Source: a virus (lineage: Duplodnaviria; Caudoviricetes). From it: a DNA stretch of 33,690 nucleotides. The position numbers were made by a program, and so were the translations under genes. The notes beneath the pieces were generated by a model that was not told where the DNA came from, made no database searches, and saw only the letters and a program-made list of their open reading frames with translations. The stretch lies in the IMG/VR virus record IMGVR_UViG_3300007987_001205, positions 1 to 33,690 of that record; one strand, given 5' to 3'. The first letter of the stretch is position 1; every line of letters begins with the position of its first letter. Of this stretch, positions 5,253 through 32,491 are shown in pieces.

Positions 5253-5660
5253 TCATGCGCTTGCTCTCGTCGGAAAACGCGGGAACTTCACGATGATTTG
5301 CGTCCGCGCGTCATGCCACACTCCCATCACGCGCGGCAGAATGTATTTGTCGTTGGTGACGATGCCGCCGGCTTCCATCGCGTCGAAGAGGACCTTGCCG
5401 TAGTTGTGCGCGTCGCAGTTGGTCCGGGGCAGGATGAACCACAGGTCCAGCCGGCAGTAGGAGTCGATAGGCCGGAACTTCTTGAAGCGCGCCCAGAGCT
5501 TGAGCGCGAGGCCGACGGACCGGATGTAGTCCCTGGCCTCGGCGGTCAGGATGTCCCGGCACAGGCGGCCCATCCGGACGGGGCGCATCCTGGCGTTGGT
5601 CGAGGGGCAAAGCGGCAGGAAGAGCAGCACCCCGTCGGAAAGCCGCTGCGAGGCGATCAT
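5253..5660 (-). CDS. rusA: RusA-family Holliday junction resolvase
   Basis: PSTN near the N terminus and DAHNYGKVLFDAMEAGGIVTND motif; ATGA-coupled. Confidence 0.85.
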   Translation of the reverse strand: MIASQRLSDGVLLFLPLCPSTNARMRPVRMGRLCRDILTAEARDYIRSVGLALKLWARFKKFRPIDSYCRLDLWFILPRTNCDAHNYGKVLFDAMEAGGIVTNDKYILPRVMGVWHDARTQIIVKFPRFPTRASA

Positions 5661-8600
5661 CGTGCTCGGTCCCCATCATCGTTGTGCTGGTCCGAGTTGC
5701 CATGCGCTCCTCCATTTCCGAACAGCGACTCAAACCAATCGGGTGATTCGCCGCGAGAGGGGTCGAAACTCTCGCAGGTCGCGGGCGATTCCCAAGCGAT
5801 CTCGCATCCCATCAGGTCGCGGACCCTTGCCCGGAAGTACGGGGTATCGGCCGCAAGGATGGCGGTGGACCAGGGCGACGCGCCGCCCTGCTTTCTGGAT
5901 CGCTTTTGGCGGAATCTGAAAAGGCCCAAACTCCAAGACAAGGTAGTCTTGACTTGTGGGCCTTTTCGGATCAGATGTATTTTCCTGTCGATTTCGTGTT
6001 TTGCGGCCTTGGTGGAGGCGAATAGATCGGGCCATCGATCGGCCAAAATCCGGGGGACCAAGGGCAGCGTGCCCGCGCCGCGCATGTACGCCTGGCCGAG
6101 CCTGCTGACCGCGCGGCCGACCAGGATATCTCTAAAGCTCGCGAGCCTGTCCACATCCAGGTCCAGCGGCAGCTTGCTCAAGATGTAGACCTCCTTTGCC
6201 GTGTTCGTGTAGACCAGCCGGATGCGGTCTACGGCCTGGACCGATTCGCGCTCTCGCTTAAGCTCGAGGACGCGTTGAACCCGGGGATCGGGGTGCGTAT
6301 GTACCCGAGCACCGGCCTTGTTTCCGTTCTTGATCCGATAGCCGCGCAGAGTCTCTACATACTCGCCTGGAAGGCTCAGCGGCTCGGGATCGTCGTCCCA
6401 GATCGCTCGGGCGAGCCCTTCGATATCGCGAGCACGCGGCTGCTCGCGGCCGATCATCAAGACCGCCTCATGGTGCTTCCAGTCGTCCACGCCTCGGACG
6501 CGGCCGAAGTGCGCTATCGTCGCGCCCTTCCATTCGCAACACAGGGGCAGCTTCTCGTCCCTCTCCCCCGTGATGGCGCGGCGAACGGGCTTGGCGCAGA
6601 TGACGAACAGCCGGGCGCTTCGCGCAAGTTTTTCGATGAGACTCTTGATCTGCGCGATCCGTTTGGCCGCCTGAGCAGCCAGTTTCGGCGGCGCGCCGGG
6701 AAATCCGATCAGCGACCTGCGGGAAAACGAGGAGCTGTGGCATTGCGTCACTACCGCGTTCCGTGATACGGAGATCGCCACGTGCTCAAGCGGTTCGCCG
6801 AAAAGCCTTCGGTTGATCTCGCCGTCGGCGTCCGCATCGATCAGGAGCAGCGGCTTGTACTTGCCCGCCAGGACCTTCTGCCGCCATCGGACGAAGATCC
6901 GATTCTGGCGCTCTGTCTTGCCGTTGACCGTCACCGCATCGTTGCGCCGGAGCTCGACGGCGTGCGAGCCCGGACGCTTGAGCGCGACCTCATTGGCGAG
7001 CTGCCGCAGAAGGAGCGCGATCTTCTTGCGCTCGGACTCCTCGAGCGCGGCCAGACGCTCCACCGCCTCGCCCTCGGGCATATCGGGGGTCACGCCCGTG
7101 TCCCCGTCCTCCCGCCCTTCGGCCGCTTCCGCGGCCCGCGCGAGGATTTCCCCGTCTAGGCCCTGCGCCCTCGCCGCCTCGAGGAGCGGCTTGTCCTCAG
7201 AGAGCGCCTTGCGAACGCGGTCGAGGCAATCCGCCGACTCGCCCTCGGCCCAGGAGGGCGTCTCGGCCAGGCGGTCCGGGGCGAAGGCAAGCTCCCCTGC
7301 CAGCGTTTCCACGACCGACTCGTCGACGATCACCATGTTCGCCGCCGGGAAGCCCGACGGCATGGGCAGGTGAAGGTACTGGTGTGACCATATCCTTACC
7401 GCCGGTCCGCGGTCGTTCCACTGTTTGATCCAGGGGCAGTGGTCGTAGTGCTCGCATGTCCCCGCGCCGGACCTGCACAGCGTCTTGAAGACGTTTAGCC
7501 CTAGCCGACTGGCCAGGTCCGCCGCGTCGGGTTTGCGGCACATCGTCTTGGGCTCGCGAGGCCCGCGCTCTTCGGTCGCCTCGGCCAGCCTGCCACGCAT
7601 GACGCGCACCTCGGGACCCGGCGCAAATCGGGGGTCGAAGGAAAGCTCGACGATCCGTTGGGCCAAACGCTCGCCTAGGTCCAAGGTCGGGACGAAGATC
7701 GATATGTGCAAGTCCCTGAGCTTCGGGCGGGACACGATTTCCTGGACGACGGCCTCGGTCTTTCCAATCCCCGCCACGGCCTGCACCGCGAGCCGCGGGG
7801 CCGCGCGTAGATCGGCGATGCCGTACTTCTCCTTGACCTCGGCGCGCCAAGCGTCGGCGATCTCCCGCGGCGTCCGGCGCGCGAACCGAGACTTGTAGCG
7901 TCGAGCGAGCTCTCGTCGGGCCAGCGCCAGGGCCTGCGTCTGGTCGAACCACTGCGAGATGCAAGAGCGCAACTGAGCGGACGCCTCGTCCCTCGCGAGG
8001 GGCTTGGAGAGATATGCGGGCGGCACGCCATCGACGAGTTTCCACGGCGAGAGACGTTGACGGGCGAAGCCCTTGCGCCGGGCTCCCGCGATCATGGCCG
8101 ACACCTCGCCGCGAGTCTGCTCTGTCGTCCAGCCGGATAGGGTATAGGGCTCGGCCTTGGCCAGGATGTCCTCGTCGGACCATCCCGCGGCCACGAAACG
8201 GGCCACGGCGCGCAGCATCGGCGCGTGCCAGTTGCCCGGGCCCACCTGGCCAAGAAGGGTCTCGGCGTCCGGTGACGGACGAGAAGGGTCAATCGAATGT
8301 CGCCGTCGGGGAGCCGTTGGATGATTGCTTGGGGGCGCTGGCTTCTCGGCAGGGGAAAAGAAGCGCGCGACCCTGCCCTCCGGATAGGGGCTGCCGTCGG
8401 GACGGACGCTGAAATCTGTGCGCTCCACGACCCGGCCGGGCTTCTTGGGCCAGGCGATGGAGCCCGCGAGACGCATGACGCGGCTGGGATTCGTGACCGT
8501 GGTGTCGCCGCCCATAGCGTCGGCGAGGGCTCGGTTCTGCCGGCGGCACAGGTCGGGATCTGCGACGGGAGTCTCCTGCCGCCACCAGAGTTGCGCGCGA

Positions 8601-8995
8601 GTGTGGGGATGCTTCCCCGTCACGCCCACGGCGGTAGGTCTAACATCCCGGGTCAGTGTGAGAGCCCGGTTGTAGGCTCCCGCCTCGTCGAGGTCGACAT
8701 AGAAGGCGGTCAGAGCGTAGAAGCTCGCGTCGGCCGCGCGCCTGTTGCGCGGCGTGCCGTGCTTGCGCAGCGCCGCGCCGATGTAGACGTTCTGCCCGGC
8801 GACGGCGTTTACGCGCGCGGCGGTTTCTGCCAGGTCGTCTAAGCAGTCGGTCTCGAAGAGCCGGGAGTGGCGCAGCTTGCCGTCTTTCGCGTCGGCCCAG
8901 GCCAGCTCCACGAGGCCGTCCTGGTATTCATCGAGCCAGCCGCCGAAGAGGTGCTCCAAGTGGGCGCGCATGGCCTCAGCGTCGGGCTTCATCAT
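5657..8995 (-). CDS. RepB-like (AEP) primase fused to an SF2-like helicase/origin-binding module
   Basis: N-terminal NVYIG..FYVDLD..NPSRVMRLAGS; AVAGIGKT Walker A, IVDES Walker B, four-Cys cluster (MCRK..LCRS..TCEHYDHCPW), QAVDRIR. Confidence 0.75.
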   Translation of the reverse strand: MMKPDAEAMRAHLEHLFGGWLDEYQDGLVELAWADAKDGKLRHSRLFETDCLDDLAETAARVNAVAGQNVYIGAALRKHGTPRNRRAADASFYALTAFYVDLDEAGAYNRALTLTRDVRPTAVGVTGKHPHTRAQLWWRQETPVADPDLCRRQNRALADAMGGDTTVTNPSRVMRLAGSIAWPKKPGRVVERTDFSVRPDGSPYPEGRVARFFSPAEKPAPPSNHPTAPRRRHSIDPSRPSPDAETLLGQVGPGNWHAPMLRAVARFVAAGWSDEDILAKAEPYTLSGWTTEQTRGEVSAMIAGARRKGFARQRLSPWKLVDGVPPAYLSKPLARDEASAQLRSCISQWFDQTQALALARRELARRYKSRFARRTPREIADAWRAEVKEKYGIADLRAAPRLAVQAVAGIGKTEAVVQEIVSRPKLRDLHISIFVPTLDLGERLAQRIVELSFDPRFAPGPEVRVMRGRLAEATEERGPREPKTMCRKPDAADLASRLGLNVFKTLCRSGAGTCEHYDHCPWIKQWNDRGPAVRIWSHQYLHLPMPSGFPAANMVIVDESVVETLAGELAFAPDRLAETPSWAEGESADCLDRVRKALSEDKPLLEAARAQGLDGEILARAAEAAEGREDGDTGVTPDMPEGEAVERLAALEESERKKIALLLRQLANEVALKRPGSHAVELRRNDAVTVNGKTERQNRIFVRWRQKVLAGKYKPLLLIDADADGEINRRLFGEPLEHVAISVSRNAVVTQCHSSSFSRRSLIGFPGAPPKLAAQAAKRIAQIKSLIEKLARSARLFVICAKPVRRAITGERDEKLPLCCEWKGATIAHFGRVRGVDDWKHHEAVLMIGREQPRARDIEGLARAIWDDDPEPLSLPGEYVETLRGYRIKNGNKAGARVHTHPDPRVQRVLELKRERESVQAVDRIRLVYTNTAKEVYILSKLPLDLDVDRLASFRDILVGRAVSRLGQAYMRGAGTLPLVPRILADRWPDLFASTKAAKHEIDRKIHLIRKGPQVKTTLSWSLGLFRFRQKRSRKQGGASPWSTAILAADTPYFRARVRDLMGCEIAWESPATCESFDPSRGESPDWFESLFGNGGAHGNSDQHNDDGDRAR
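5918..5967. repeat. Nested inverted repeat, candidate phage replication origin
   Basis: GAAAAGGCCCA/TGGGCCTTTTC (11 bp) and CAAGAC/GTCTTG share one symmetry centre (5942.5) in a lower-GC patch. Confidence 0.5.
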
Positions 8996-11508
8996 CCCAT
9001 GCGCCTCGCGGCACAGCGCGCGATTGCCGCGCTCAGAAGGTCTCCCGCCTCGCCCGCGGTAAGTCCCGGAGGCGGGTTGATGCGGAACTTGGTCAGCGCG
9101 TTTAGGACCTTGCTCGACGCGGGCCTTCTTCGCCAGGAGGCGTTTTCGGACACCAGCGTTTCCGCCCGTGCCCGGCGGATGTAGTCCTCGCCGATGCCCT
9201 GTGCTAACTCGAGGTCGACCGGCGCGGATTGGAGTTTCTCGTGCGACGCCCAGCGGTCACGAGGCGCGACCTCGACGATCCAGCCGTCCGAGCGCTTCGC
9301 CATGAGAACCATGCCGTGATTGCCGGCCGAGAGCGCGTAGAGATCGGGCGATGCTTCGACCCAGTGGATGCTCTTGCGCGCGCGGCGCTCCTTGTTGGCC
9401 TCTAGGTACGACTGGACCAAGTCGTCCTCTCGCGATTTCCGCTCGTCCTGTTCTTCGAGCGCCTCGGTCACCGTTTCGTCGCCCACCTCATCGGGGTTGA
9501 GGCCGAAAAGAGCCGGAGCTTGCACGAGCTTGTGGTCGCTCGACGCCCCGGCCAAGTCGATGATGAGGCAGTCCTCCTTGCCTGGGAAAATCCGCGTCCC
9601 GCGGCCGATCATCTGGAGGTAGAGCGTCTTGGACCGCGTAGGCCGCGCGATCATGACGGCCGATATGGACGGCTCGTCGAAGCCTTCAGTGAGGACCGCG
9701 CAGTTGCAGACGACCATGGTATCGCCGGTCTTAAGCCGCCGAAGGATGGCCCTGCGCTCGTCGATCGGCGTGTCGCCGGATAGGAACTCGGCTGCGACGC
9801 CGCGAGCCTGGAGGGCATCGGCGGTACGCCGCGCTTGGTCGACGGTGACGGTGAAGATCAGCGCCTTGCGGCCGGGGGCGTGTTCGACATACGCCTCGGC
9901 GGTCGCTTCGGCCGCGCCCGCCCGAAACATGGCCTCGCCGAGTTGGCCCTGGTTGTAGTCAGAACTCACGAGGCCAATGTCGTCGAGGCTGAAGTTTAGT
10001 TCGACCTGCTTGGTGCGCAGATCCACCAGCCAGCCGTCCTTGATGGCCTGAAGGAGCTGAAGTTGGTAGACGATCTCCTGAAACGCGGTATCTAAGCCCA
10101 GCCTGTCGCCGCGTTCGACCGTGGCGGTCAGGCCGAGGGTGGGCGGTCCGCCGTTAAAGCAGCCGAGATGTTCCAGCGTTCGGCGATAGGTGGCCGCGGC
10201 CGCGTGATGGCAGTTGTGGACGAGGATGCCGCTTACGAAGTAGTTGTGGTTGCGCTCGACTTCGAGATTGTAGACGTGACCACCCGGACACAGCCCGCCA
10301 AATTCTTCGTCACCTCTCGGTTCGAGAACCTCAACACTTTCCACCCGAGCGAATCCAAGAGCTCTTCCTTCTTCCGATCTTGCAGTCTGCGCTCGATGGC
10401 GTTGTGGCTGCCGCCGTCCACTTCTATCGCGATCTTGAGCCCCGGGTGCGCGATATCCAGCTTGTAATGGTTGGGATAGCCGCTCCCCCGGCCGGTCCTC
10501 GTCGGAAGAACAAATTCCGTCTCCCATCCTAATGCGTCGGCAAGGGCGGCTTGCGGTTTCGTAAGTCCACGTCCGTTCCCGCCGCGAGGCAACGGCCCGT
10601 GGCCGATCCTTCTGAGCGTCGCAGACATCTTCTCGCGGACGGACCGGCGGCGCATGGGATTGTTCGCCCGCATTCTCCCGGACGCAAAAATCCTGTTCGT
10701 TCTGGACATTGTTCGCGAGGATACCGATCTGACATAGGCAGCTTTGCAGGATTCGGAGCAATAGGCCCTTCCCGATCTGCGCAGGAGATCCCGGCGGCGC
10801 TTGCCGGTCACGGCGGTATTCGCCTCGCACCAAGCGCAGTGAGCGATCTTCATCGGATGCCTCCTGTTTCCACAAAACCAGTCCCGAGCCAGGACGTAGA
10901 CGATAGGCGGGAACCCAACGTCCGTCCGAGAAGAAGGGATGCCCGGGCGTACAGATCACATCCCCGATACCGGCCACCGTGACTCGGAGCAGACCCGACG
11001 GCTTCCGCTTGAAAACCCGCCTGACGGCTCTTCGCTCAAGCAGGCCGGTCGGACTGACTGACCAGACGAGGTCACCCGGCACGAGTTTCTCTATAGGCTT
11101 TCCATCGACAAGCGTTCCGGCGGGGAAGCACTCGTCCACCACGACAAGGTCGAAGCCGGAGAGTCCCTCGAGGCGGCCGGGCCTGGAGACAGTCTGTATC
11201 GAGCCGAACACAACCTGCGCGTCCGTCTCGTCGCGGTCCGCCTTGACCACCCCGGTCTCGGCCGCGGGCCAGACCGCGCGCATCGCGCGCTGCGGCTGCT
11301 CGATGAGTTCGTCGCGGTGAGCGAGCCAGAGCGTTCGCGCGCCGAGCCGCTTGGCGATGGCGAGCCCCGTCACGGTCTTGCCGCATCCCGTGGGCAGGTT
11401 GATGATGCCGCGCCTGAGTCCCGCCTCCCTCTTTCCGTCCCAGGCGACCATCGCGGCCTCTTGGTAGGGTCGAAGGACAATGCCGGTCTCTTTGTGGTTG
11501 TTCTGCAT
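8992..11508 (-). CDS. SF2 DExH helicase (ResIII/Irc3-like), intein-containing
   Basis: LRPYQ, PTGCGKT, DE|CH split by intein, LTAT, TEGFD, QMIGRGTR; ATG 11508 preferred. Confidence 0.93.
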   Translation of the reverse strand: MQNNHKETGIVLRPYQEAAMVAWDGKREAGLRRGIINLPTGCGKTVTGLAIAKRLGARTLWLAHRDELIEQPQRAMRAVWPAAETGVVKADRDETDAQVVFGSIQTVSRPGRLEGLSGFDLVVVDECFPAGTLVDGKPIEKLVPGDLVWSVSPTGLLERRAVRRVFKRKPSGLLRVTVAGIGDVICTPGHPFFSDGRWVPAYRLRPGSGLVLWKQEASDEDRSLRLVRGEYRRDRQAPPGSPAQIGKGLLLRILQSCLCQIGILANNVQNEQDFCVRENAGEQSHAPPVRPREDVCDAQKDRPRAVASRRERTWTYETASRPCRRIRMGDGICSSDEDRPGERLSQPLQAGYRAPGAQDRDRSGRRQPQRHRAQTARSEEGRALGFARVESVEVLEPRGDEEFGGLCPGGHVYNLEVERNHNYFVSGILVHNCHHAAAATYRRTLEHLGCFNGGPPTLGLTATVERGDRLGLDTAFQEIVYQLQLLQAIKDGWLVDLRTKQVELNFSLDDIGLVSSDYNQGQLGEAMFRAGAAEATAEAYVEHAPGRKALIFTVTVDQARRTADALQARGVAAEFLSGDTPIDERRAILRRLKTGDTMVVCNCAVLTEGFDEPSISAVMIARPTRSKTLYLQMIGRGTRIFPGKEDCLIIDLAGASSDHKLVQAPALFGLNPDEVGDETVTEALEEQDERKSREDDLVQSYLEANKERRARKSIHWVEASPDLYALSAGNHGMVLMAKRSDGWIVEVAPRDRWASHEKLQSAPVDLELAQGIGEDYIRRARAETLVSENASWRRRPASSKVLNALTKFRINPPPGLTAGEAGDLLSAAIARCAARRMG
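10213..11130 (-). mobile_element. Intein (306 aa) in helicase motif II
   Basis: Begins CFPAGTLV, block B CTPGHPF, block F VYNLEV, ends LVHN followed by Cys; removal restores VVVDECHH. Confidence 0.95.
10233..10853 (-). CDS. Vsr/DUF559 (EDxHD-type) endonuclease nested out of frame inside the intein
   Basis: AGGAGG (10860-10865) 6 nt before ATG; CAWC..YCSESC, NNPM..VREKMS (NUMOD3-like), LDIA..IAIEVDGGSH..DRKKEELLDSLGWKVLRF. Confidence 0.88.
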   Translation of the reverse strand: MKIAHCAWCEANTAVTGKRRRDLLRRSGRAYCSESCKAAYVRSVSSRTMSRTNRIFASGRMRANNPMRRRSVREKMSATLRRIGHGPLPRGGNGRGLTKPQAALADALGWETEFVLPTRTGRGSGYPNHYKLDIAHPGLKIAIEVDGGSHNAIERRLQDRKKEELLDSLGWKVLRFSNREVTKNLAGCVRVVTSTISKSSATTTTS

Positions 11509-11560
11509 GGGCTTCCCGCCGAAGCCCCGGCCCGGGCAATCCCGGACCGGGGGCCTCTGC

Positions 11561-12141
11561 TCAGAAGGGCACGGGCTCCTCGTCGACCGCGCCGGGGCGC
11601 TCCACCTGCTTGTCCGTGGGCGTCTGCCGCGCGCCCTTGCGCGGCGTGCGCGGGGCCGGCAGTTCATCGGGCTCTGGATGGGACTCGGTGTAGAGTTCCT
11701 CGATGAAGTTCTTCTCGTTGGTGTAGGTCCGCCCGTCTACCACCTTGTCGTAGGTGGTTACGCCCAGAAGGACGCGAAACGATCGGCCCTTAAGGTCCGA
11801 CTCGGCGAGCCGGAACTTTCCATCGAAAGGCAGGCCCACGGCGCGCAGGAAGTGAACCGCCATGCCGTGGCCGGGGTTGGCCTTCTCGCCCGAACCGCGC
11901 GGTATCCAGACCACGTTGTGCCAGACGCGCTTACCGAAGTGATCGCCCTCGTCGGCGATCTCGCAGACCATCTTCGTGATCGGCGTGCCCGGGTTCTTGC
12001 CGCCGCGTGTCCGTTCGCCGTCAGAGTGCTCGGCGATTTGGAGGGTGTAGAAGCCGCGCGGGGCGGGGCTGAAGTCCCCTCCGCCAGCTCCCGGGCTGCT
12101 CTCCGCGCCTCTGCGTCCGCGTCGAAGTCGATTTCTGCCAT
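11561..12141 (-). pseudogene. DUF669-like phage ssDNA-binding protein with an apparent 1-nt frameshift near the 5' end
   Basis: GGAGG plus ATG 12141 (MAEIDFDADAEA) is out of frame with the body (DFSPAPRGFY...DEEPVPF acidic/aromatic tail); follows the Sak4-like gene. Confidence 0.7.
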
Positions 12142-19060: not shown

Positions 19061-20152
19061 ATGCGAATCTATAGAAGGCACAAGGATCGCCCCGAGTGGC
19101 ACATCGATTTCCGCTACAAGGACGAGAACGGCCAGTGGAAGCGGCGCATCGAGGTCGTCGGGCCGAATAAGAAGCTGGCCGAGCAGGTGCTGCGCAAGCG
19201 CATGGGCGAGGTCGCCGAGGGGAAGTTTTTCCCGGAGCGCAAGAAGCGGCGCATCTCCTTCTCGGAGATGGCGGACCTCTACATGGAGCTTCACGGCAAG
19301 CACCAGCCGAGCGGCCATATCACGAACCACCACGTCCGGCGGCTCAAGAAGCATTTCGGCGCGAAGATGCTCGACAAGATCACGATTCCGGACGTCCTGC
19401 GCTACGTCAACGGCGTCAAGGAGCGCACCTCGGCCTCGACCGCCAACCGCCACCACGCGATCCTGCGGGCGATCTTCAACCGGGGCATCGAGTGGGAGAA
19501 GTTCGACGGCCCGAACCCCGCCGCCAAGGTCAAGCCCTTTCGCGTGGAGAACAGCCGCCTGCGCTTCTTGTCCAAAGAGGAGATCGGCAGCCTGCTGGAG
19601 TCCTGCTCGCCGCGCATCTATCCCTTGGTGGTCTGCGCGCTTCTGACGGGCATGCGGCGCGGCGAAATCCTGGGGCTCGCCTGGGAGAACGTGAACTTGG
19701 CGCAAGACGTTCTCTATGTGCTAAAATCCAAGTCAGGGAAACCTAGGGAGATTCCGATCGCCCGCAAGTTGCGAGAGGTATTGGTGGCTCTAGGCCCGAA
19801 GAAGTCCGGGCGGCTCTTTGAAATTTCGGACATGACCCTCAGGCGGGATTTTCCCGTCGCGCTGAGGGCCGCAGGTATCGAGAATTTCAGGTTTCATGAC
19901 CTGAGGCATACGTTCGCGTCCCATTACGTGATGCGAACCAACGATTTGCCCGCCACGCAGAAGCTGCTCGGGCACCACAGCCCGGTCATGACCCAACGGT
20001 ACGCCCACCTATCCACGGGGCACTTGAAGGTCGGAATCGAGCTCCTGGATACGGGATTGGATACGAATTGGATACACGGGCCTAAATCGGCCCAGGGCGA
20101 AACCGAGAAACCTAAAGATTTACAACCAAACGCGGGCGTGGTTCAATGGTAG
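19061..20152 (+). CDS. int: Tyrosine integrase (prophage)
   Basis: TGMRRGE, K, FHDLRH, LGH, RY catalytic motifs; stop inside the tRNA. Confidence 0.95.
   Translation: MRIYRRHKDRPEWHIDFRYKDENGQWKRRIEVVGPNKKLAEQVLRKRMGEVAEGKFFPERKKRRISFSEMADLYMELHGKHQPSGHITNHHVRRLKKHFGAKMLDKITIPDVLRYVNGVKERTSASTANRHHAILRAIFNRGIEWEKFDGPNPAAKVKPFRVENSRLRFLSKEEIGSLLESCSPRIYPLVVCALLTGMRRGEILGLAWENVNLAQDVLYVLKSKSGKPREIPIARKLREVLVALGPKKSGRLFEISDMTLRRDFPVALRAAGIENFRFHDLRHTFASHYVMRTNDLPATQKLLGHHSPVMTQRYAHLSTGHLKVGIELLDTGLDTNWIHGPKSAQGETEKPKDLQPNAGVVQW
20046..20075 (+). repeat. Three TGGATAC direct repeats (candidate integrase arm sites)
   Basis: Copies at 20046, 20058 and 20069, inside the int 3' end, 56 nt before the tRNA. 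Confidence 0.6.
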
Positions 20153-25751: not shown

Positions 25752-26786
25752 CTAGTCCGATATAGTGTCGCGGTATACTGCGCTGGATGCGCTCGGCAAC
25801 CTCAACACCGCCTCCCGCAGGCTCGACGGCATGAGGTGGGCGTAAATCTGCGTCGTCTTGGGACTCGAATGCCCGAGCATCCGGCCGATGCGGAAAAGAT
25901 CGACGCCGGCCATGGCGAGATGCGAGGCGAAGCTGTGGCGAAGCGCGTGCAGGCCTCCCTTGGCCACGCCTGACTTCTCGAGAAAGCGCGTGAAGGCCTT
26001 GCTCAGATGCCCGGGGGCCAGCGACGGGAGCAGAACCCTGTCGGTCTCGGCCGCGCCGTTCTTGAGCTCGCGAAGCACCTCCTCCAACGCCGGGTGCAGC
26101 TCGATCTCGCGGGCCTCGTAGTCCTTGGGCGTCCAGCCTTCCTTGGGCGTGATGCGAAGCTGACGCGAGCCGAAGTCTACGTCGCGCCACTGAAGGGCCA
26201 GCATCTCCCCGCGGCGCAGGCCGGCGTAGAAGCCGAGGTGGATGACGGTCCGCCAGAACGGGTCGGCCGCGGCGAGGAGCGTTTGGATCTCCTCGTGGGT
26301 GTAGAAAACGGGGCGCTTCTTGACTTCGGGGAGGCGCTTGACGCCGCGCAGGCTCGCGCAGGTGTAGCCCCACTCCTCGGCCTTATTCACGATGGCCTTT
26401 AGCAGCGAGAGCTCGCGGTTGATCGTCGCGGGCTTTCGGCCGAGCCTTTTTCGCAGGAGCTTGTAGCGCTCCAGGACCTCGGCGCGCAGGTGGGCGAGCT
26501 TCTCCAAGTGAAAGGCGCGGTTAAATTCCTGGAGGATGATCCGGTTGAGCTCCCAGGTCTTGGGCGCGACGCTGGCCTTGGCGTAGGTCATGTACTTCTT
26601 GGTGAAGTCGGCCCAGGAGATGTCCTTGCCGCCCGCTCCGCTTCCGCCCGAGCGCAGGTTCTTGATGATCTCGGCCAGCTTGATGCGGGCCACGTCCTTA
26701 TCGGCCGAGAGCGAGCGCCAGATATGTTTCTTGCCCTCCCACCAGCAGCCGTACCAGCGGCTTCCCCGCTTAAGCAAGGTCGCCAT
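25752..26786 (-). CDS. int: Tyrosine integrase (island)
   Basis: AGLRRGE, K, LHALRHSF, LGH, IYAH. Confidence 0.95.
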   Translation of the reverse strand: MATLLKRGSRWYGCWWEGKKHIWRSLSADKDVARIKLAEIIKNLRSGGSGAGGKDISWADFTKKYMTYAKASVAPKTWELNRIILQEFNRAFHLEKLAHLRAEVLERYKLLRKRLGRKPATINRELSLLKAIVNKAEEWGYTCASLRGVKRLPEVKKRPVFYTHEEIQTLLAAADPFWRTVIHLGFYAGLRRGEMLALQWRDVDFGSRQLRITPKEGWTPKDYEAREIELHPALEEVLRELKNGAAETDRVLLPSLAPGHLSKAFTRFLEKSGVAKGGLHALRHSFASHLAMAGVDLFRIGRMLGHSSPKTTQIYAHLMPSSLREAVLRLPSASSAVYRDTISD

Positions 26787-26984: not shown

Positions 26985-27433
26985 GACGAGGTACCTTCCT
27001 TCCCGCCGGAAAGCAAGGCCTTTCTCGGCTCGCAGGCTCCGAGCCCGGTTCGAGGGCCGTTTTGCGCCCGTTCAGCGATTCGTTCATACGGGTTCCCCGT
27101 CGAGCGTTTTGAACAAACAAAAAATGTGTGAAACACCGCATGCGCCTTCAAAACGCGGCGCTGCCATGAGTGTGCGGGGTTTGGGGTCGAAAATTTGCGC
27201 TTTTTCCGGCGGGCCCGAAATCCAGAATTGTCGTTGCGAATCAAAAGGAAACCTAATGTGCGATTAGGTCCCCCTGACGAGGTCCCTCGTTCGCCCGTTC
27301 CGAGCCCATGCCACGCCGCGACCGGCCCCGCGACCCTGCTCCGGCAGGGGCAGGGGGGCACATTCAAGGCGGGGGCCGCGCTGGCTGGATTTGAGCTTCT
27401 CTGTTGCTTCTTTTGCCGGGAGCGTTCAGTCAT
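26981..27433 (-). CDS. Putative 150-aa bridging ORF between primase and xis
   Basis: GGAGG plus ATG overlapping the primase end; TGA overlaps the xis ATG; no recognisable domain. Confidence 0.3.
   Translation of the reverse strand: MTERSRQKKQQRSSNPASAAPALNVPPCPCRSRVAGPVAAWHGLGTGERGTSSGGPNRTLGFLLIRNDNSGFRARRKKRKFSTPNPAHSWQRRVLKAHAVFHTFFVCSKRSTGNPYERIAERAQNGPRTGLGACEPRKALLSGGKEGTSS
27105..27176. other. Copy of the prophage inter-terminase element (candidate packaging site)
   Basis: CGTTTTGAA-N16-GAAACA..TTCAAAACGCGGCGCTGCCATGAGTGTGCG, matching 4246-4315. Confidence 0.6.
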
Positions 27434-29954
27434 CGCCCCTCCCGCGGTCGACCGCGTACCACTGACGCACGAGCGACTCGACCGTCTTCTCGGCCTCCTC
27501 GCGCGAGAAGCCGTCCTCATGCTCGAAGGTTCCCGCCTTCTCTTCGAAGATGTCCTTGTAGTACTCGGGCCAATCCTCGATACGCTCGGGAAGCTCGGGA
27601 GGGAAAGACTTGGACCGGCTCGGACCGGGCAGACCGGCTTGTTCCGACCTTTCTCCTTCCGGCTCCTCTTCCTCCTCGAAAAGATCGATTCCAGGTGAAC
27701 TAAAGTGGGCGGAACCCGGTCTTTCCGGTCCATCCCGGTCCGGCGCGTCCTCGGCCCAACCCAGGCCCAGCCAGACGCGCAGCTTCCTGCCGCCCTCGGC
27801 CACTTCCCGCCCCTCGCGGACGGCCAAGGTCTCCGAGAGGCGCTTGTTGAAGGTCTTCTGGCTGACGGGATGGGGCACGCCGATCTCGGCCGCCCAGGCC
27901 TTGTAAGCCTCGTAGGTCTCGGCCTTGGCCAGCGTATGCCCCTGCACCACGCGAAGCCGCTCCTCAATGAACTCGTAGACGTTGTCGCACTGCCGGCGGT
28001 ACTTCTCGGTGGCGGCGCTGACGCTTGAAGATTCGGTAAAGCCCGCCTGGGCTTCCAGGCGTCTTAAGCCCGCCAGCGCGCGATTAAGCCACGCGCTTCT
28101 CGCCTCGGGCGTTACGAGCTTCGCGCTCAGCCCGCGATCGGCCTTCTGGCCTTCAAAGCGATTGGGAAAGGGGATGATCAGCCAGCGGCGGAAAAACCCC
28201 GGCGTCAGGTCGCGGCTCGGCGGCAACTCGTTGGCGCTAAAGAGCAGGCGGCTGTAGGGGCGCAGGTCGAAGGGGTGCTGGAACTTCCGCTCGGCCTTGA
28301 TCATGTCGCCGGTGACGACGGCCTTGAACACGTCGCTTTTCTCAAGCGCCTTGGCCGGCAGGTCGGGGTAGATGTTGGCCAGCTTGCCCAGAAGCTCGGC
28401 CGCGGCGAAGCGGTTGTCGCTCATGTCCTGCAAGGCGACGTGACTGATGTTCTCGTATCCCAAGAGCGCCTCGACGGCGTTTAAGAAAGTGGACTTGCCG
28501 TTGGCCCCCGCACCCAAGAGCATGAAGGCCTTCTGATGGCGCGTGGTCGGGAGCAAGAGATAGCCCAACATCTCCTCGGCCAGGGGCAAAGCGTCTTCCG
28601 GGAAGACCTCGGGCAAGAAGCGCTCGACGACCGGGCAGCGCGCCTCGGGGGAGTAGGCGGCGTGGATGCGGAAGGTGGAAAGATAATTCTTCGAGTGAGG
28701 GCGCAGCTCCCCAGTGCGCCAATTGAGCATCCCGTTTTCGAGGTTGATCAAATCCAAGGCCCGGGGATCGAGCTCGCCTTGCTCCTTCTTGCCGGTTTCC
28801 TTTATGAGCGCGACCGTGGACTCCAGGCGGTCGGGCTTCGAGAGATAATCCAGCTTCTTATGCGCGATCGTCCGGGCGATGCTGGCGCCGTTTTGGAAGA
28901 CGCCCCCTTCGTAGGTGAGAAGCCGCACCCCCTTTCCCGCATCGTCGATCGGGCTCGAAATAAACACGCGCGATCTCATGATCTTGCGGCAAAGTTTGGC
29001 GGGAAGAAAATCCTTCTTGTTGAAAAACTCCGTGGGGTCCTCATCGGCGTCCTCGTCTTTTTCCGGGAGCAGCCCGCCGCTAAGCAGGCTCGCCAGCTTG
29101 TAGAGCGGCTTGGCCCCCGTCACCGCGGACGAGAGCGCTTCCTTAAATCCCTCGGCGTCTTTCTGGTGCAGCTCGTTGGCGTCCTTGGCCCCTTCCAACT
29201 GAACCGCGAAGGCCTCGCCGGTAAAGCCGATCTCGCGCAGGCGCTGGGCCAGCCCTTTGATCAAGGCTTCGCCGCCTTGGTCCGGCTCCTGGATCGCGTA
29301 GACTCGCGCGGCCTGGGCCACATGCTCCGCTTCAAGAACGCCCGTCATGTTCGCGCCCGGAAGCCCCAGCGCAGCGAAACCGTGATACCAGAGCGTCCAG
29401 CAGTCGGACTCGCCTTCGACGAGATAGAGCCGCTCGTCCTTGCCGTAGTCCTTGAGCCGCCACAGGCCGTAGGGAACCGGCCGCCCGCCGGCGCCCATCC
29501 AAATGCTCCCGTCCTTGGCCTTAAGCGCGCGGCGGAGGCGCTGGCGCGGGGCGAGCGCGCCGCCGATCAGCCGGTAGGTGATCTTGACGACGTTGTTTTC
29601 GTAAATGTCGATCAGGTCGTAGACGCCCTGCTCTTTAAGGAACTCCTCGGGCAGCTTCTTGTCGGCCGCGAGTTCGACCAAGGTAAGGGTTTGGGGCTCT
29701 TTCTTCCGGGGAGCGCGCTTTTTCTGCGGGAAGAGATCGCGCATCGCAAGGCCCATCTCCGCTACAACGGTCTTGGTCTCGCAGCCGGCGAAGCACTTGA
29801 TGAGTAGCTTCCCGTCCGTCGCCTGGCTGACCGAGAGGCTGCGCTTCTTGTCCTCGTGGGCCGGGCAGCGCGCAATCCAGCCCTTCTTGTTCTCCTTGAC
29901 CTCTTTGAGGCGGGGCAGGAAGTCGTCTATAGGGTTGGTCTTGTTCATCTTCAT
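27426..29954 (-). CDS. P4-family primase-helicase (Zn finger, TOPRIM, D5/SF3 helicase)
   Basis: CPAHED..KCFAGC, VEGESD, DQGG, GANGKST, FSANELP, RRWLIIPF; start 29954 or 29948. Confidence 0.92.
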   Translation of the reverse strand: MKMNKTNPIDDFLPRLKEVKENKKGWIARCPAHEDKKRSLSVSQATDGKLLIKCFAGCETKTVVAEMGLAMRDLFPQKKRAPRKKEPQTLTLVELAADKKLPEEFLKEQGVYDLIDIYENNVVKITYRLIGGALAPRQRLRRALKAKDGSIWMGAGGRPVPYGLWRLKDYGKDERLYLVEGESDCWTLWYHGFAALGLPGANMTGVLEAEHVAQAARVYAIQEPDQGGEALIKGLAQRLREIGFTGEAFAVQLEGAKDANELHQKDAEGFKEALSSAVTGAKPLYKLASLLSGGLLPEKDEDADEDPTEFFNKKDFLPAKLCRKIMRSRVFISSPIDDAGKGVRLLTYEGGVFQNGASIARTIAHKKLDYLSKPDRLESTVALIKETGKKEQGELDPRALDLINLENGMLNWRTGELRPHSKNYLSTFRIHAAYSPEARCPVVERFLPEVFPEDALPLAEEMLGYLLLPTTRHQKAFMLLGAGANGKSTFLNAVEALLGYENISHVALQDMSDNRFAAAELLGKLANIYPDLPAKALEKSDVFKAVVTGDMIKAERKFQHPFDLRPYSRLLFSANELPPSRDLTPGFFRRWLIIPFPNRFEGQKADRGLSAKLVTPEARSAWLNRALAGLRRLEAQAGFTESSSVSAATEKYRRQCDNVYEFIEERLRVVQGHTLAKAETYEAYKAWAAEIGVPHPVSQKTFNKRLSETLAVREGREVAEGGRKLRVWLGLGWAEDAPDRDGPERPGSAHFSSPGIDLFEEEEEPEGERSEQAGLPGPSRSKSFPPELPERIEDWPEYYKDIFEEKAGTFEHEDGFSREEAEKTVESLVRQWYAVDRGRGDD
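27612..27741. repeat. Mirror-arranged iterons, candidate satellite origin
   Basis: GACCGG at 27613, 27623, 27632 and CCGGTC at 27716, 27725, 27735. Confidence 0.65.
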
Positions 29955-29964
29955 CCGCTCCAAC

Positions 29965-30004
29965 AAAAAAAGCGCCGCCGGCCCCCGCGGGGGCTTGGCA
30001 GCGC
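29965..30004 (-). terminator. Intrinsic terminator/attenuator directly before the primase RBS
   Basis: GC-rich hairpin GCGCTGCCAAGCCCCC..GGGGGCCGGCGGCGC followed by T7 on the minus strand. Confidence 0.7.
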
Positions 30005-30961: not shown

Positions 30962-31039
30962 CTCCCATGGCCAAGAAAGGAATAATGCTCGCCGTGGAAC
31001 ACGGGATTTGGCGCGGTGAAACCGCGCAGGAGCACCGCC

Positions 31040-32491
31040 ATGTTTGAGCAGACTTTTAAGAACATCGATGACGTTTTGTGGAAGGAAGCAGGCTGCACGA
31101 CGGAGCTCGATTACACCGAACAAACCTCGTGGATACTCTTCCTCAAGTATCTAGACGACCTTGAGCAGGAGCGCGCCACCGAAGCAGAGCTGGTCGGCAA
31201 GAAGTACAGCCACATCATCGACAAGGACTTCCGCTGGGCGAAATGGGCCGCCCCGAAAACGAAGGACGGTTCCTTCGACCACGACAAGGCGCTTACCGGC
31301 GACGACCTCGTCGAGTTCGTCAACAAGAAGCTCTTCCCCTACCTCCAGGGCTTCAAGGAGCGCGCCTCGACCCCCGACACGATCGAGTACAAGATCGGCG
31401 AGATCTTCGGCGAGATCAAAAACAAGTTCCAAAGCGGCTACAGCCTCCGGGACGCGCTCGAACTCATCGATGCGCTGCGCTTTCGCTCCCAAAAGGAGAA
31501 GCACGAGCTCTCGCACCTCTATGAGGCCAAGATCAAGAACATGGGCAACGCCGGCCGCAACGGCGGCGAGTACTACACGCCCAGGCCCTTGATTCGCGCG
31601 ATGATCCAAGTCGTCAAGCCCAAGGTCGGTGAGACGATTTACGACGGGGCCTGCGGGTCCGCCGGATTCCTTTGTGAATCGCACGACTATCTGATGCGGA
31701 GCAAGCTCTCGACGAAGCAGCTCGCTCGGCTTCAGGACAAGACGTTTTACGGCAAGGAGAAGAAGAGTCTCGCCTATGTGATCGCGATCATGAACATGAT
31801 CCTTCACGGCATCGACGCGCCCAATATCATCCACACCAATACGCTCTCGGAGAATTTGGCCGACATCCAGGAGAAGGACCGCTACGACATCATCCTGGCC
31901 AATCCTCCTTTCGGGGGAAAGGAACGCAAGGAGGTTCAGCAGAACTTCCCGATCAAGACGAGCGAGACGGCGTTTTTGTTCCTTCAGCACTTCATCAAGA
32001 TGCTCAAGGCGGGCGGCCGTGCGGCGGTGGTCATCAAGAACACCTTCTTGTCGAACTCGGACAACGCCTCAAAGGCGCTGCGCAAGGAACTCTTGGAATC
32101 CTCCAATCTCCACACGATCCTGGACTGTCCGGGAGGGACATTCCTCGGCGCCGGCGTCAAAACCGTCGTTCTCTTCTTTGAGAAGGGCTCCAAGACCCGG
32201 AAGATCTGGTACTACCAGCTTGAACCCGGTCGGAACCTCGGCAAAACAAACCCGCTAAACGATGATGATCTCTCCGAGTTCGTGAAGCTTCAGGCAAAGT
32301 CCGGCAAATCCAGCTCCTCATGGACGGTCGACGCCAAGGACATTGAGCAGGATAGCTTCGACCTATCGGTCAGGAATCCGAACAAAAAGGAAGATATTGA
32401 GCTCCGCAGCCCGAAGGAGATCATTGCCGAGATTAAGCGACTCGATGAGGAGAGCGCAGAGATTCTCAAGAAGATTGAGGAATTGGTTTGA
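31040..32491 (+). CDS. hsdM: Type I R-M methyltransferase subunit
   Basis: GEYYTPR, DGACGSAGF, NPPF; AGGAG RBS at ATG 31040. Confidence 0.95.
   Translation: MFEQTFKNIDDVLWKEAGCTTELDYTEQTSWILFLKYLDDLEQERATEAELVGKKYSHIIDKDFRWAKWAAPKTKDGSFDHDKALTGDDLVEFVNKKLFPYLQGFKERASTPDTIEYKIGEIFGEIKNKFQSGYSLRDALELIDALRFRSQKEKHELSHLYEAKIKNMGNAGRNGGEYYTPRPLIRAMIQVVKPKVGETIYDGACGSAGFLCESHDYLMRSKLSTKQLARLQDKTFYGKEKKSLAYVIAIMNMILHGIDAPNIIHTNTLSENLADIQEKDRYDIILANPPFGGKERKEVQQNFPIKTSETAFLFLQHFIKMLKAGGRAAVVIKNTFLSNSDNASKALRKELLESSNLHTILDCPGGTFLGAGVKTVVLFFEKGSKTRKIWYYQLEPGRNLGKTNPLNDDDLSEFVKLQAKSGKSSSSWTVDAKDIEQDSFDLSVRNPNKKEDIELRSPKEIIAEIKRLDEESAEILKKIEELV

Follow-up and report, generated by a model that had tools for sequence, protein, structure and literature searches.

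In this study, we analyzed a 33,690-nucleotide stretch of viral DNA (positions 1 to 33,690 of IMG/VR record IMGVR_UViG_3300007987_001205, Duplodnaviria; Caudoviricetes; hereafter the window), in which a phage DNA helicase gene is interrupted by an intein that holds a second gene out of frame. Sequence and structural modeling together indicate that this is very probably a contiguous intein whose spacer stays free of stops in the helicase frame, and that one base over lies a separate gene, likely with its own start, encoding a Vsr-fold nuclease that is predicted to act as a homing endonuclease. The layout is real, widespread and under selection; the architecture itself is already known, and this particular DUF559 family at Walker B sites is apparently not in print. 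The elements of the intein and its nested gene are as follows.

10213..11130, minus strand: contiguous intein of 306 aa, CFPAG...LVHN followed by C, identified by the Pfam Intein_splicing profile and motifs.
10233..10853, minus strand: nested gene for a 206-aa DUF559/Vsr-fold endonuclease, the predicted homing enzyme, identified by open reading frame, profile and fold.
10860..10865, minus strand: Shine-Dalgarno (SD) sequence AGGAGG of the nested gene, 6 nt before its ATG, read as Q-E-A in intein codons.
10746..10838, minus strand: predicted zinc finger, C6-x2-C9...C32-x3-C36, at an N-terminus with weak similarity to FCS/MYM/TRASH zinc fingers; a long basic helix and an NNPM helix come next.
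10251..10568, minus strand: catalytic domain of the nuclease, aa 96-201, placed by invariant residues and fold.
10233..10346, minus strand: doubly constrained stretch, in which the nuclease GWKVLRFSN and C-terminal helix share DNA with the RVESVEV strand, LCPGG and block F of the intein.

The intein sits between DE and CHH of the Walker B motif, within a helicase open reading frame (ORF) that is open from 11508 to 8992, and matches Pfam Intein_splicing (E = 2.5e-9, 37.6 bits against a cut-off of 35.8), in agreement with an earlier note on this DNA that had proposed a 306-aa intein in the DECH motif with its frame open throughout. Class 1 inteins carry Cys or Ser at position 1, TxxH in block B, a terminal His-Asn and Cys, Ser or Thr at +1. 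The window intein shows this set (Cys1, T61-x-x-H64 in block B, VYNLEV in block F, a terminal HN and a +1 Cys), with the profile matching at both ends of the insert, and is predicted to splice by the class 1 route. Among 86 relatives, C1 and TxxH are present in all 86, and the terminal pair is HN in 82 and SN in four; separately, among proteins P0005 and P0007-P0011, two database variants have NN instead of HN at the intein end. The insertion is precise and in frame, as the intein-less homologue L149 reads DE directly followed by CHH. Judged by its sequence and by selection, the linker in the intein frame appears to be unstructured. A split intein would have a stop within the intein and a separate start for its C-terminal part (IntC); the window frame is open, and breaks of this kind are found only in relatives. 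On some contigs, gene callers begin the C-terminal helicase gene at a GTG that opens the VESVEV strand of the intein (window position 10344, minus strand). A latent restart at this GTG, which is GTG in 77/85, was considered and rejected: SD sequences were not enriched there (7% vs 17%, p = 0.88), so that there is no sign of contiguous copies also working as split inteins.

The nested ORF lies wholly within the intein on the same strand, at +1 relative to it. It begins 277 nt from the intein start, runs for 621 nt including the stop and ends 20 nt ahead of the intein end, and hence overlaps block F. What the earlier note had described, namely a 206-aa ORF at 10853-10233, an AGGAGG 6 nt before its ATG, 621 double-coding nucleotides and the overlap with block F, is all present, and its DUF559/Vsr assignment was confirmed by a profile search: DUF559 (PF04480) matches with E = 6.4e-11 (42.5 bits against a gathering cut-off of 20.6), and likewise matches 19 of 19 family members. 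Residues D133, E144, D146, G147, H150 and D159 are invariant in 86/86 aligned relatives. AlphaFold2, run with a 19-sequence alignment, predicts a small beta/helix N-terminal unit with four cysteines, long helices and an alpha/beta domain (predicted local distance difference test score, pLDDT, 90; predicted template modeling score, pTM, 0.56). The nuclease domain of this model matches 3hrl (Z 12.6; root-mean-square deviation, rmsd, 1.3), I-Bth0305I (3r3p, Z 11.0, rmsd 2.6 over 90 residues) and Vsr (1cw0, Z 9.5). Foldseek ranked the same three structures first, with the top row at E = 0.0099 and none at E ≤ 0.001, while a profile of the nuclease family found 3hrl at 3e-11 and 3r3p at 0.002. E144 and D159 align with 3r3p, H150 falls one column off the H213A site, and D133, judged by spacing only, probably corresponds to D196 of I-Bth0305I. 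The NUMOD3-like label that the protein had been given was dropped for want of Pfam support: no NUMOD family of Pfam matched any of the 19 aligned members at E ≤ 0.05, a search in which short motifs are easily missed, and the NNPM helix motif is conserved.

We next consider how general the layout is. Nuclease scans returned 30 viral loci, in a next round 340 viral matches (the best 80 being retained), and 20 genome loci; the patterns of these first scans included the overlap motif. Many of the resulting loci (L001-L140) were duplicated between scans, and the 131 with an intein C-terminal end formed 94 clusters at 90% identity. Both intein ends are visible in 91 of these 94, and 88 of the 91 are contiguous, all in the phase of the window, among them L030, a mini-intein remnant, and L034, a decayed copy in a terminase; the three non-contiguous clusters are L028, L111 and L105. 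The first set also contains two close free-standing relatives (L067 and L070), and seven distant DUF559 genome matches without an intein (L133-135, L137-140) were left out of the family counts. Because the first patterns contained the overlap motif, the test was repeated in metagenomes with patterns that avoid it and with a free-standing copy as the lead query, keeping the best 80 of 388 matches. The 78 clusters obtained comprise 62 contiguous elements with the nuclease at +1, five cut by a contig end but in phase, four fractured, one in frame and six without an intein, that is, 62 contiguous among the 67 with both ends seen. Four clusters are common to both sets, which leaves approximately 147 distinct contiguous elements among the matches kept. 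One of the 62 (L189:1526-2581) comes from a contig with NCBI table 25, in which TGA means Gly, and both of its frames are open under that code. A search with the free-standing L067 alone as query returned only L067 itself.

The family is also present in cultured phages. A tblastn search of 50,697 phage records located the nuclease in 40 (37 from Vibrio, 2 from Corynebacterium and 1 from Pseudomonas), and all six records that were opened have the layout of the window, with only the helicase annotated. The expectation that standard gene callers would miss the nested gene was therefore right for these six records, and too strong for the window itself, whose nested protein was called on one contig (the helicase on 16).

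Start signals point to independent translation of the nuclease. In 72 of the 86 relatives, the first CxxC has an ATG no more than 30 codons away, and an SD energy of -5 kcal/mol or lower is found at 64% of those ATGs, compared with 19% of 644 internal and 15% of 626 extein ATGs (p ~1e-13). This enrichment speaks against the nuclease being produced by ribosomes that shift to +1 around intein codon 90, as a fusion to the N-extein and the intein's N-terminal portion (IntN), and not from a start of its own. A frameshift would accommodate those members without an ATG or a strong SD, as well as L105, in which IntN is fused in frame to the nuclease. The twin of L105, L124, is contiguous, so that L105 looks like a single indel, and in free-standing and fractured relatives the protein starts with a Met of its own at the same CxxC, leaving the frameshift quite unlikely.

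The insertion sites bear on what the nuclease does. Insertion falls between DE and C or S in 85 of 90 junctions of the first set and in 51 of 63 junctions of the metagenome set, 7 of these at contig edges. The host proteins include SF2, SNF2, UvrD and DnaX (the last in seven clusters), in each case at Walker B sites, and this host switching, together with patchy full and empty alleles, is a sign of horizontal spread. Should the nuclease be active yet serve phage competition or general marker exclusion in the manner of a free-standing endonuclease, and not home at its own site, the seven free-standing members would be readily accommodated, as six of these lie directly upstream of an intein-less helicase gene (L167 even of one with DECHH). 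A cut site located where the intein inserts would instead account for the family staying at Walker B codons across unrelated hosts, and we regard the competition role as improbable.

Allele comparisons are consistent with mobility. Corynephage phi673 has a 302-aa intein, which phi674 lacks; their flanks are 99.1% identical, with a 302-codon difference at the site, and mismatches occur downstream at +1, 2, 3, 9 and 24 and are absent from the 161 nt upstream (the first is at -162). This pattern is consistent with the intein having been gained recently, with short co-conversion, or having been lost by recombination. The paper on these phages (PMC6132909) notes the intein, and the text available to us contains no mention of homing or of a nested gene. 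Among related Vibrio phages, full, mini and empty alleles occur at the same site. One helicase (L154:301-3432, Vibrio phage PS65A.1) contains two inteins: its Walker A holds a long one, with what we take to be LAGLIDADG-like motifs, and its Walker B a mini-intein of 150 aa.

Selection on the two frames was compared in nine hand-picked close pairs. IntN differs at 0.25/0.17/0.40 per position of its own codons, and the linker at 0.24/0.20/0.43 per position of the nuclease codons, whose third positions coincide with first positions in the intein frame. Across 1542 codons, amino-acid changes in the linker number 457 in the nuclease frame compared with 809 in the intein frame, which upholds the central proposal of the earlier note, namely an unbroken intein whose nuclease has a gene to itself, here with selection acting in that gene's own frame. 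In the Vibrio phage pair, substitutions by nuclease codon position are 2/0/30, and amino-acid changes amount to 3 in the nuclease frame and 26 in the intein frame. The nuclease frame is under purifying selection, and the intein frame is relaxed in the linker. In the nine pairs, the stretch that overlaps the intein C-terminal strand varies at about half the linker rate, and constraint from the intein side is apparent there, as the third base of Gly170 is G in 77/85 compared with a 26/23/21/15 spread at Gly147. An open intein frame has a visible cost: the invariant Tyr before Lys is encoded by a single codon in all 86 relatives (entropy 0), while TAT, from which a stop would result in the intein frame, is the codon in five of the seven free-standing copies. 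Under random synonymous recoding, 11.7 stops in the intein frame are predicted for each element; the absence of stops from the 86 scored elements is by construction, and the non-circular figures are the 88/91 and 62/67 given above. For the window ORF, recoding produced a mean of 3.9 intein-frame stops, and none in 1.5% of 200 trials, so that the double-open layout exceeds what chance would give.

These data leave little room for a nested ORF that is a dead relic, kept only because its tail overlaps the splicing strand of the intein. Such decay does occur in the family, as L030 retains the tail only and L034 is without the catalytic His/Asp stretch. The window copy has lost none of the invariant residues and retains both start and SD, invariant positions distant from the overlap hold in 86/86 relatives, and substitutions in the nuclease frame are biased toward synonymous ones, making a relic highly improbable. 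Almost no credence attaches to an assembly artefact in which two indels disguise an ordinary in-frame endonuclease as out of frame; although one in-frame family member exists (L227), the artefact is already refuted by the conservation data, since neither frame is interrupted anywhere in the 621 nt, three of three IMG/VR contigs checked have the same intein DNA, and the same phase recurs in the ~147 distinct clusters and in cultured phage genomes. The indel errors that the earlier note had named as a possible refutation were also looked for in contigs of four low-depth runs, out of 24, which show none; the contig sets of those four runs contain no junction of an intein-less allele of the window phage, and no RNA data set was among the runs known to contain this DNA.

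Based on these observations, we propose that the helicase-intein precursor, which is one open frame, would undergo class 1 splicing that discards the spacer and restores DECH. The same mRNA would in addition be translated from the internal SD-ATG, as the start signals and selection suggest, to yield the 206-aa zinc-finger and nuclease protein. In a phage infecting the same cell, this protein would cleave intein-less alleles close to their Walker B codons; repair by recombination would then copy the whole element together with a short flank bringing the +1 Cys codon, as anticipated from EDxHD biology and from the pairs of full and empty alleles. Both frames are kept, as the selection pattern above shows, the nuclease frame bearing amino-acid selection and the intein frame avoiding stops. 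Because the nuclease tail overlaps the intein C-terminal strand and block F, the nuclease is not cleanly deletable.

Several observations weigh against this proposal. First, the nuclease has no aromatic residues before the catalytic His, as are found in Vsr and I-Bth0305I; its EVDGGSH is DUF559/3HRL-like. For this reason we file it as DUF559/Vsr-like and not as a strict EDxHD member, while its modeled fold and catalytic set make it probably EDxHD-like. Second, the empty site of phi674 reads DE followed by VH, and the closest intein-less relatives of the window helicase read DE followed by AH in five of six loci (L144-L148) and by CH in L149. Third, no ATG is present within the tested span in 14 of the 86 relatives, and the SD is weak at 36% of ATG starts. 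Moreover, 19 of 45 strong SDs fall on an intein Gly-Asp/Glu codon pair (the SD of the window is exempt), so part of the SD enrichment may be a by-product. Finally, the overlap-motif patterns of the first scans and the retention of the best 80 of 340 and best 80 of 388 matches mean that the proportions reported here describe close relatives only.

The non-contiguous members inform the relationship between the states. Four helicase loci (L177, which is the same as L111, L187, L195 and L199) form a fractured clade (Shimodaira-Hasegawa-like approximate likelihood-ratio test, SH-aLRT, 98). In each of them, an 88-aa IntN is terminated by a stop a few codons past the nuclease ATG; what used to be the linker now contains 15-35 stops, and IntC, 48-57 aa long and Met-initiated, has kept the original phase. 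From their sequences, these loci are likely natural split inteins, and they constitute a set of new candidates. L028 is also fractured, with no Pfam match on its C-part, in a host gene that is presumably terminase-like. This locus (L028:63-2324) further contains a second, ordinary intein upstream, with LAGLIDADG-like motifs, and its nested nuclease is 410 aa long with many repeats of the zinc-finger unit. In L227, the catalytic core is in frame within a UvrD intein and is followed by VCPDG, echoing the intein-frame LCPDG of nested copies. Two free-standing loci deserve mention in their own right: the family nuclease at L184:1956-2600 lies upstream of a gene that, as we read it, resembles a replication initiator more than a helicase, and at L070:3054-4584 the helicase downstream of the nuclease is frameshifted exactly at the Walker B codons, by error or as a scar.

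Quick trees were poorly resolved (11/95 and 6/68 branches starred), with L028, L034 and L227 on long branches. The free-standing copies need six changes on the tree, and their monophyly was not rejected (approximately unbiased, AU, test, p = 0.138, with outgroups L138, L139, L232 and L028 left out). Residual stop depletion in 13 non-contiguous copies is clear in two (L199, L227), marginal in two (L187, L167) and absent in nine. Parsimony favors a change from contiguous to fractured, since one stop and a restart suffice, whereas the reverse must purge at least a dozen stops. The suggestion that the window intein is an intermediate toward split inteins survives as kinship, through the fractured relatives, and not as a rare transient state, the contiguous form being dominant and long maintained. 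We advance more tentatively, and with rather less than even confidence, that this is an ancient and widespread dual-coding intein family homing into the Walker B codons of many unrelated NTPases, and that the contiguous two-frame state is ancestral to the other forms: a stop just past the nested start plus a restart would give split inteins, an indel an in-frame endonuclease (L227), and deletions mini-inteins. If true, this would provide a route to split inteins in which no nuclease has to break a gene on entry, and the WKV codons of the nuclease would themselves supply the intein C-terminal strand.

The host gene and its flanking parts are organized as follows.

8992..11508, minus strand: SF2 (ResIII/DEAH-type) phage DNA helicase, 838-aa precursor (phrog_16 DNA helicase, E = 9e-87).
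11131..11508, minus strand: N-extein of 126 aa, which includes Walker A and ends at Walker B with ...VVVDE.
8992..10212, minus strand: C-extein, which begins with CHH, completing DECH, and carries the helicase C domain.

In a profile search, the ResIII and Helicase_C Pfam domains fall on the exteins, and the spliced helicase is predicted to be 532 aa long. The gene sits in a prophage-like region with portal, terminase, Sak4-like protein, exonuclease and integrases. A search for sigma-70-like promoters in 10200-11700 found none, with 0.2 expected. Overlapping the helicase stop is an ORF of 1112 aa (5657-8995, minus strand), which has a weak Pfam match only (RepB_primase, E = 0.016) and no PHROG match, and is possibly a divergent primase. 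Elsewhere in the window, at 19061-20152 (plus), 25752-26786 (minus), 27426-29966 (minus) and 31016-32491 (plus), lie two integrases, a P4-type-looking primase and a methyltransferase-like gene, which suggests a second integrated element beside the prophage.

Out-of-frame intein endonucleases have precedents, so the novelty of architecture implied by the earlier note has to be given up. In the portions available to us, Gosselin, Arsenault and Gogarten (bioRxiv 10.1101/2025.01.02.630785) describe full inteins with antisense VSR-like and LAGLIDADG homing endonucleases and a same-strand, frame-3 endonuclease VII-like enzyme, and predict decay to mini or split inteins and shifts into frame by indels. 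As far as that text goes, their inteins resemble the present one in being contiguous phage inteins with an unstructured in-frame middle and a separately encoded endonuclease. They reside in polymerase, capsid, terminase and thymidylate synthase genes, whereas the window family occupies Walker B sites of helicases and clamp loaders, and their VSR-like enzymes are antisense, in contrast to the same-strand +1 DUF559/Vsr nuclease overlapping block F. According to the accessible text of Phillips, DeSimone and Gogarten (bioRxiv 10.64898/2026.09.14.751524), a cyanobacterial dnaX intein has an overlapping +2 LAGLIDADG ORF, putative SD motifs and frame-specific ratios of nonsynonymous to synonymous change (dN/dS). 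It shares with the window family the overlapping ORF, the SD motifs and the co-occurrence of full, mini and empty alleles, and DnaX is also a host here; it differs in its LAGLIDADG enzyme and single host gene, compared with a Vsr fold in several unrelated NTPases. A same-strand DUF559 intein family at Walker B sites was not returned by our literature searches, though the supplementary tables of Gosselin et al. may list related elements, and the parts of the cited papers that we saw contain no bench demonstration of any out-of-frame intein nuclease.

The nuclease has parallels of its own. Going by the sections available, I-Bth0305I (2011, PMC3239194) and DUF559/3HRL share with it the Vsr-type C-terminal domain, an aligned E...H...D spacing and a modular N-terminal DNA-binding region. 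I-Bth0305I is ~21% identical, has EVNGVYWH in place of the EVDGxxH of the window nuclease and NUMOD2 in place of the zinc finger, and is intron-encoded, not nested in an intein. The ShiLan element (Arsenault et al. 2025, PMC11855218), as far as its description was accessible, similarly hides an out-of-frame HNH in a phage methylase whose frame stays open, in this case with no splicing domain and with an HNH nuclease.

Dassa 2009 (PMC2677866), in the part available, describes a same-strand Vsr-like gene between intein halves, with a 3' end that overlaps IntC by 6-69 bp, an intein divided by a stop and by 27-51 nt of non-coding DNA, and the aromatic DNA-intercalating residues Phe67/Trp68 of Vsr. 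The window intein is unbroken, unlike this fractured layout, which L177/L111, L187, L195, L199 and L028 do match, with the difference that the nuclease start of the four helicase loci overlaps the IntN end. Out-of-frame intein endonucleases have so far been treated as rarities; the present family, hidden in GenBank phage annotations, amounts to ~147 distinct contiguous elements among the matches kept, and the cultured pair phi673/phi674, whose laboratory host (Corynebacterium glutamicum) is harmless, makes nested translation and homing directly testable. Because the family holds every state proposed by Dassa and by Gosselin et al. (free-standing, nested, fractured, in-frame and mini), the order of events can be tested within one lineage.

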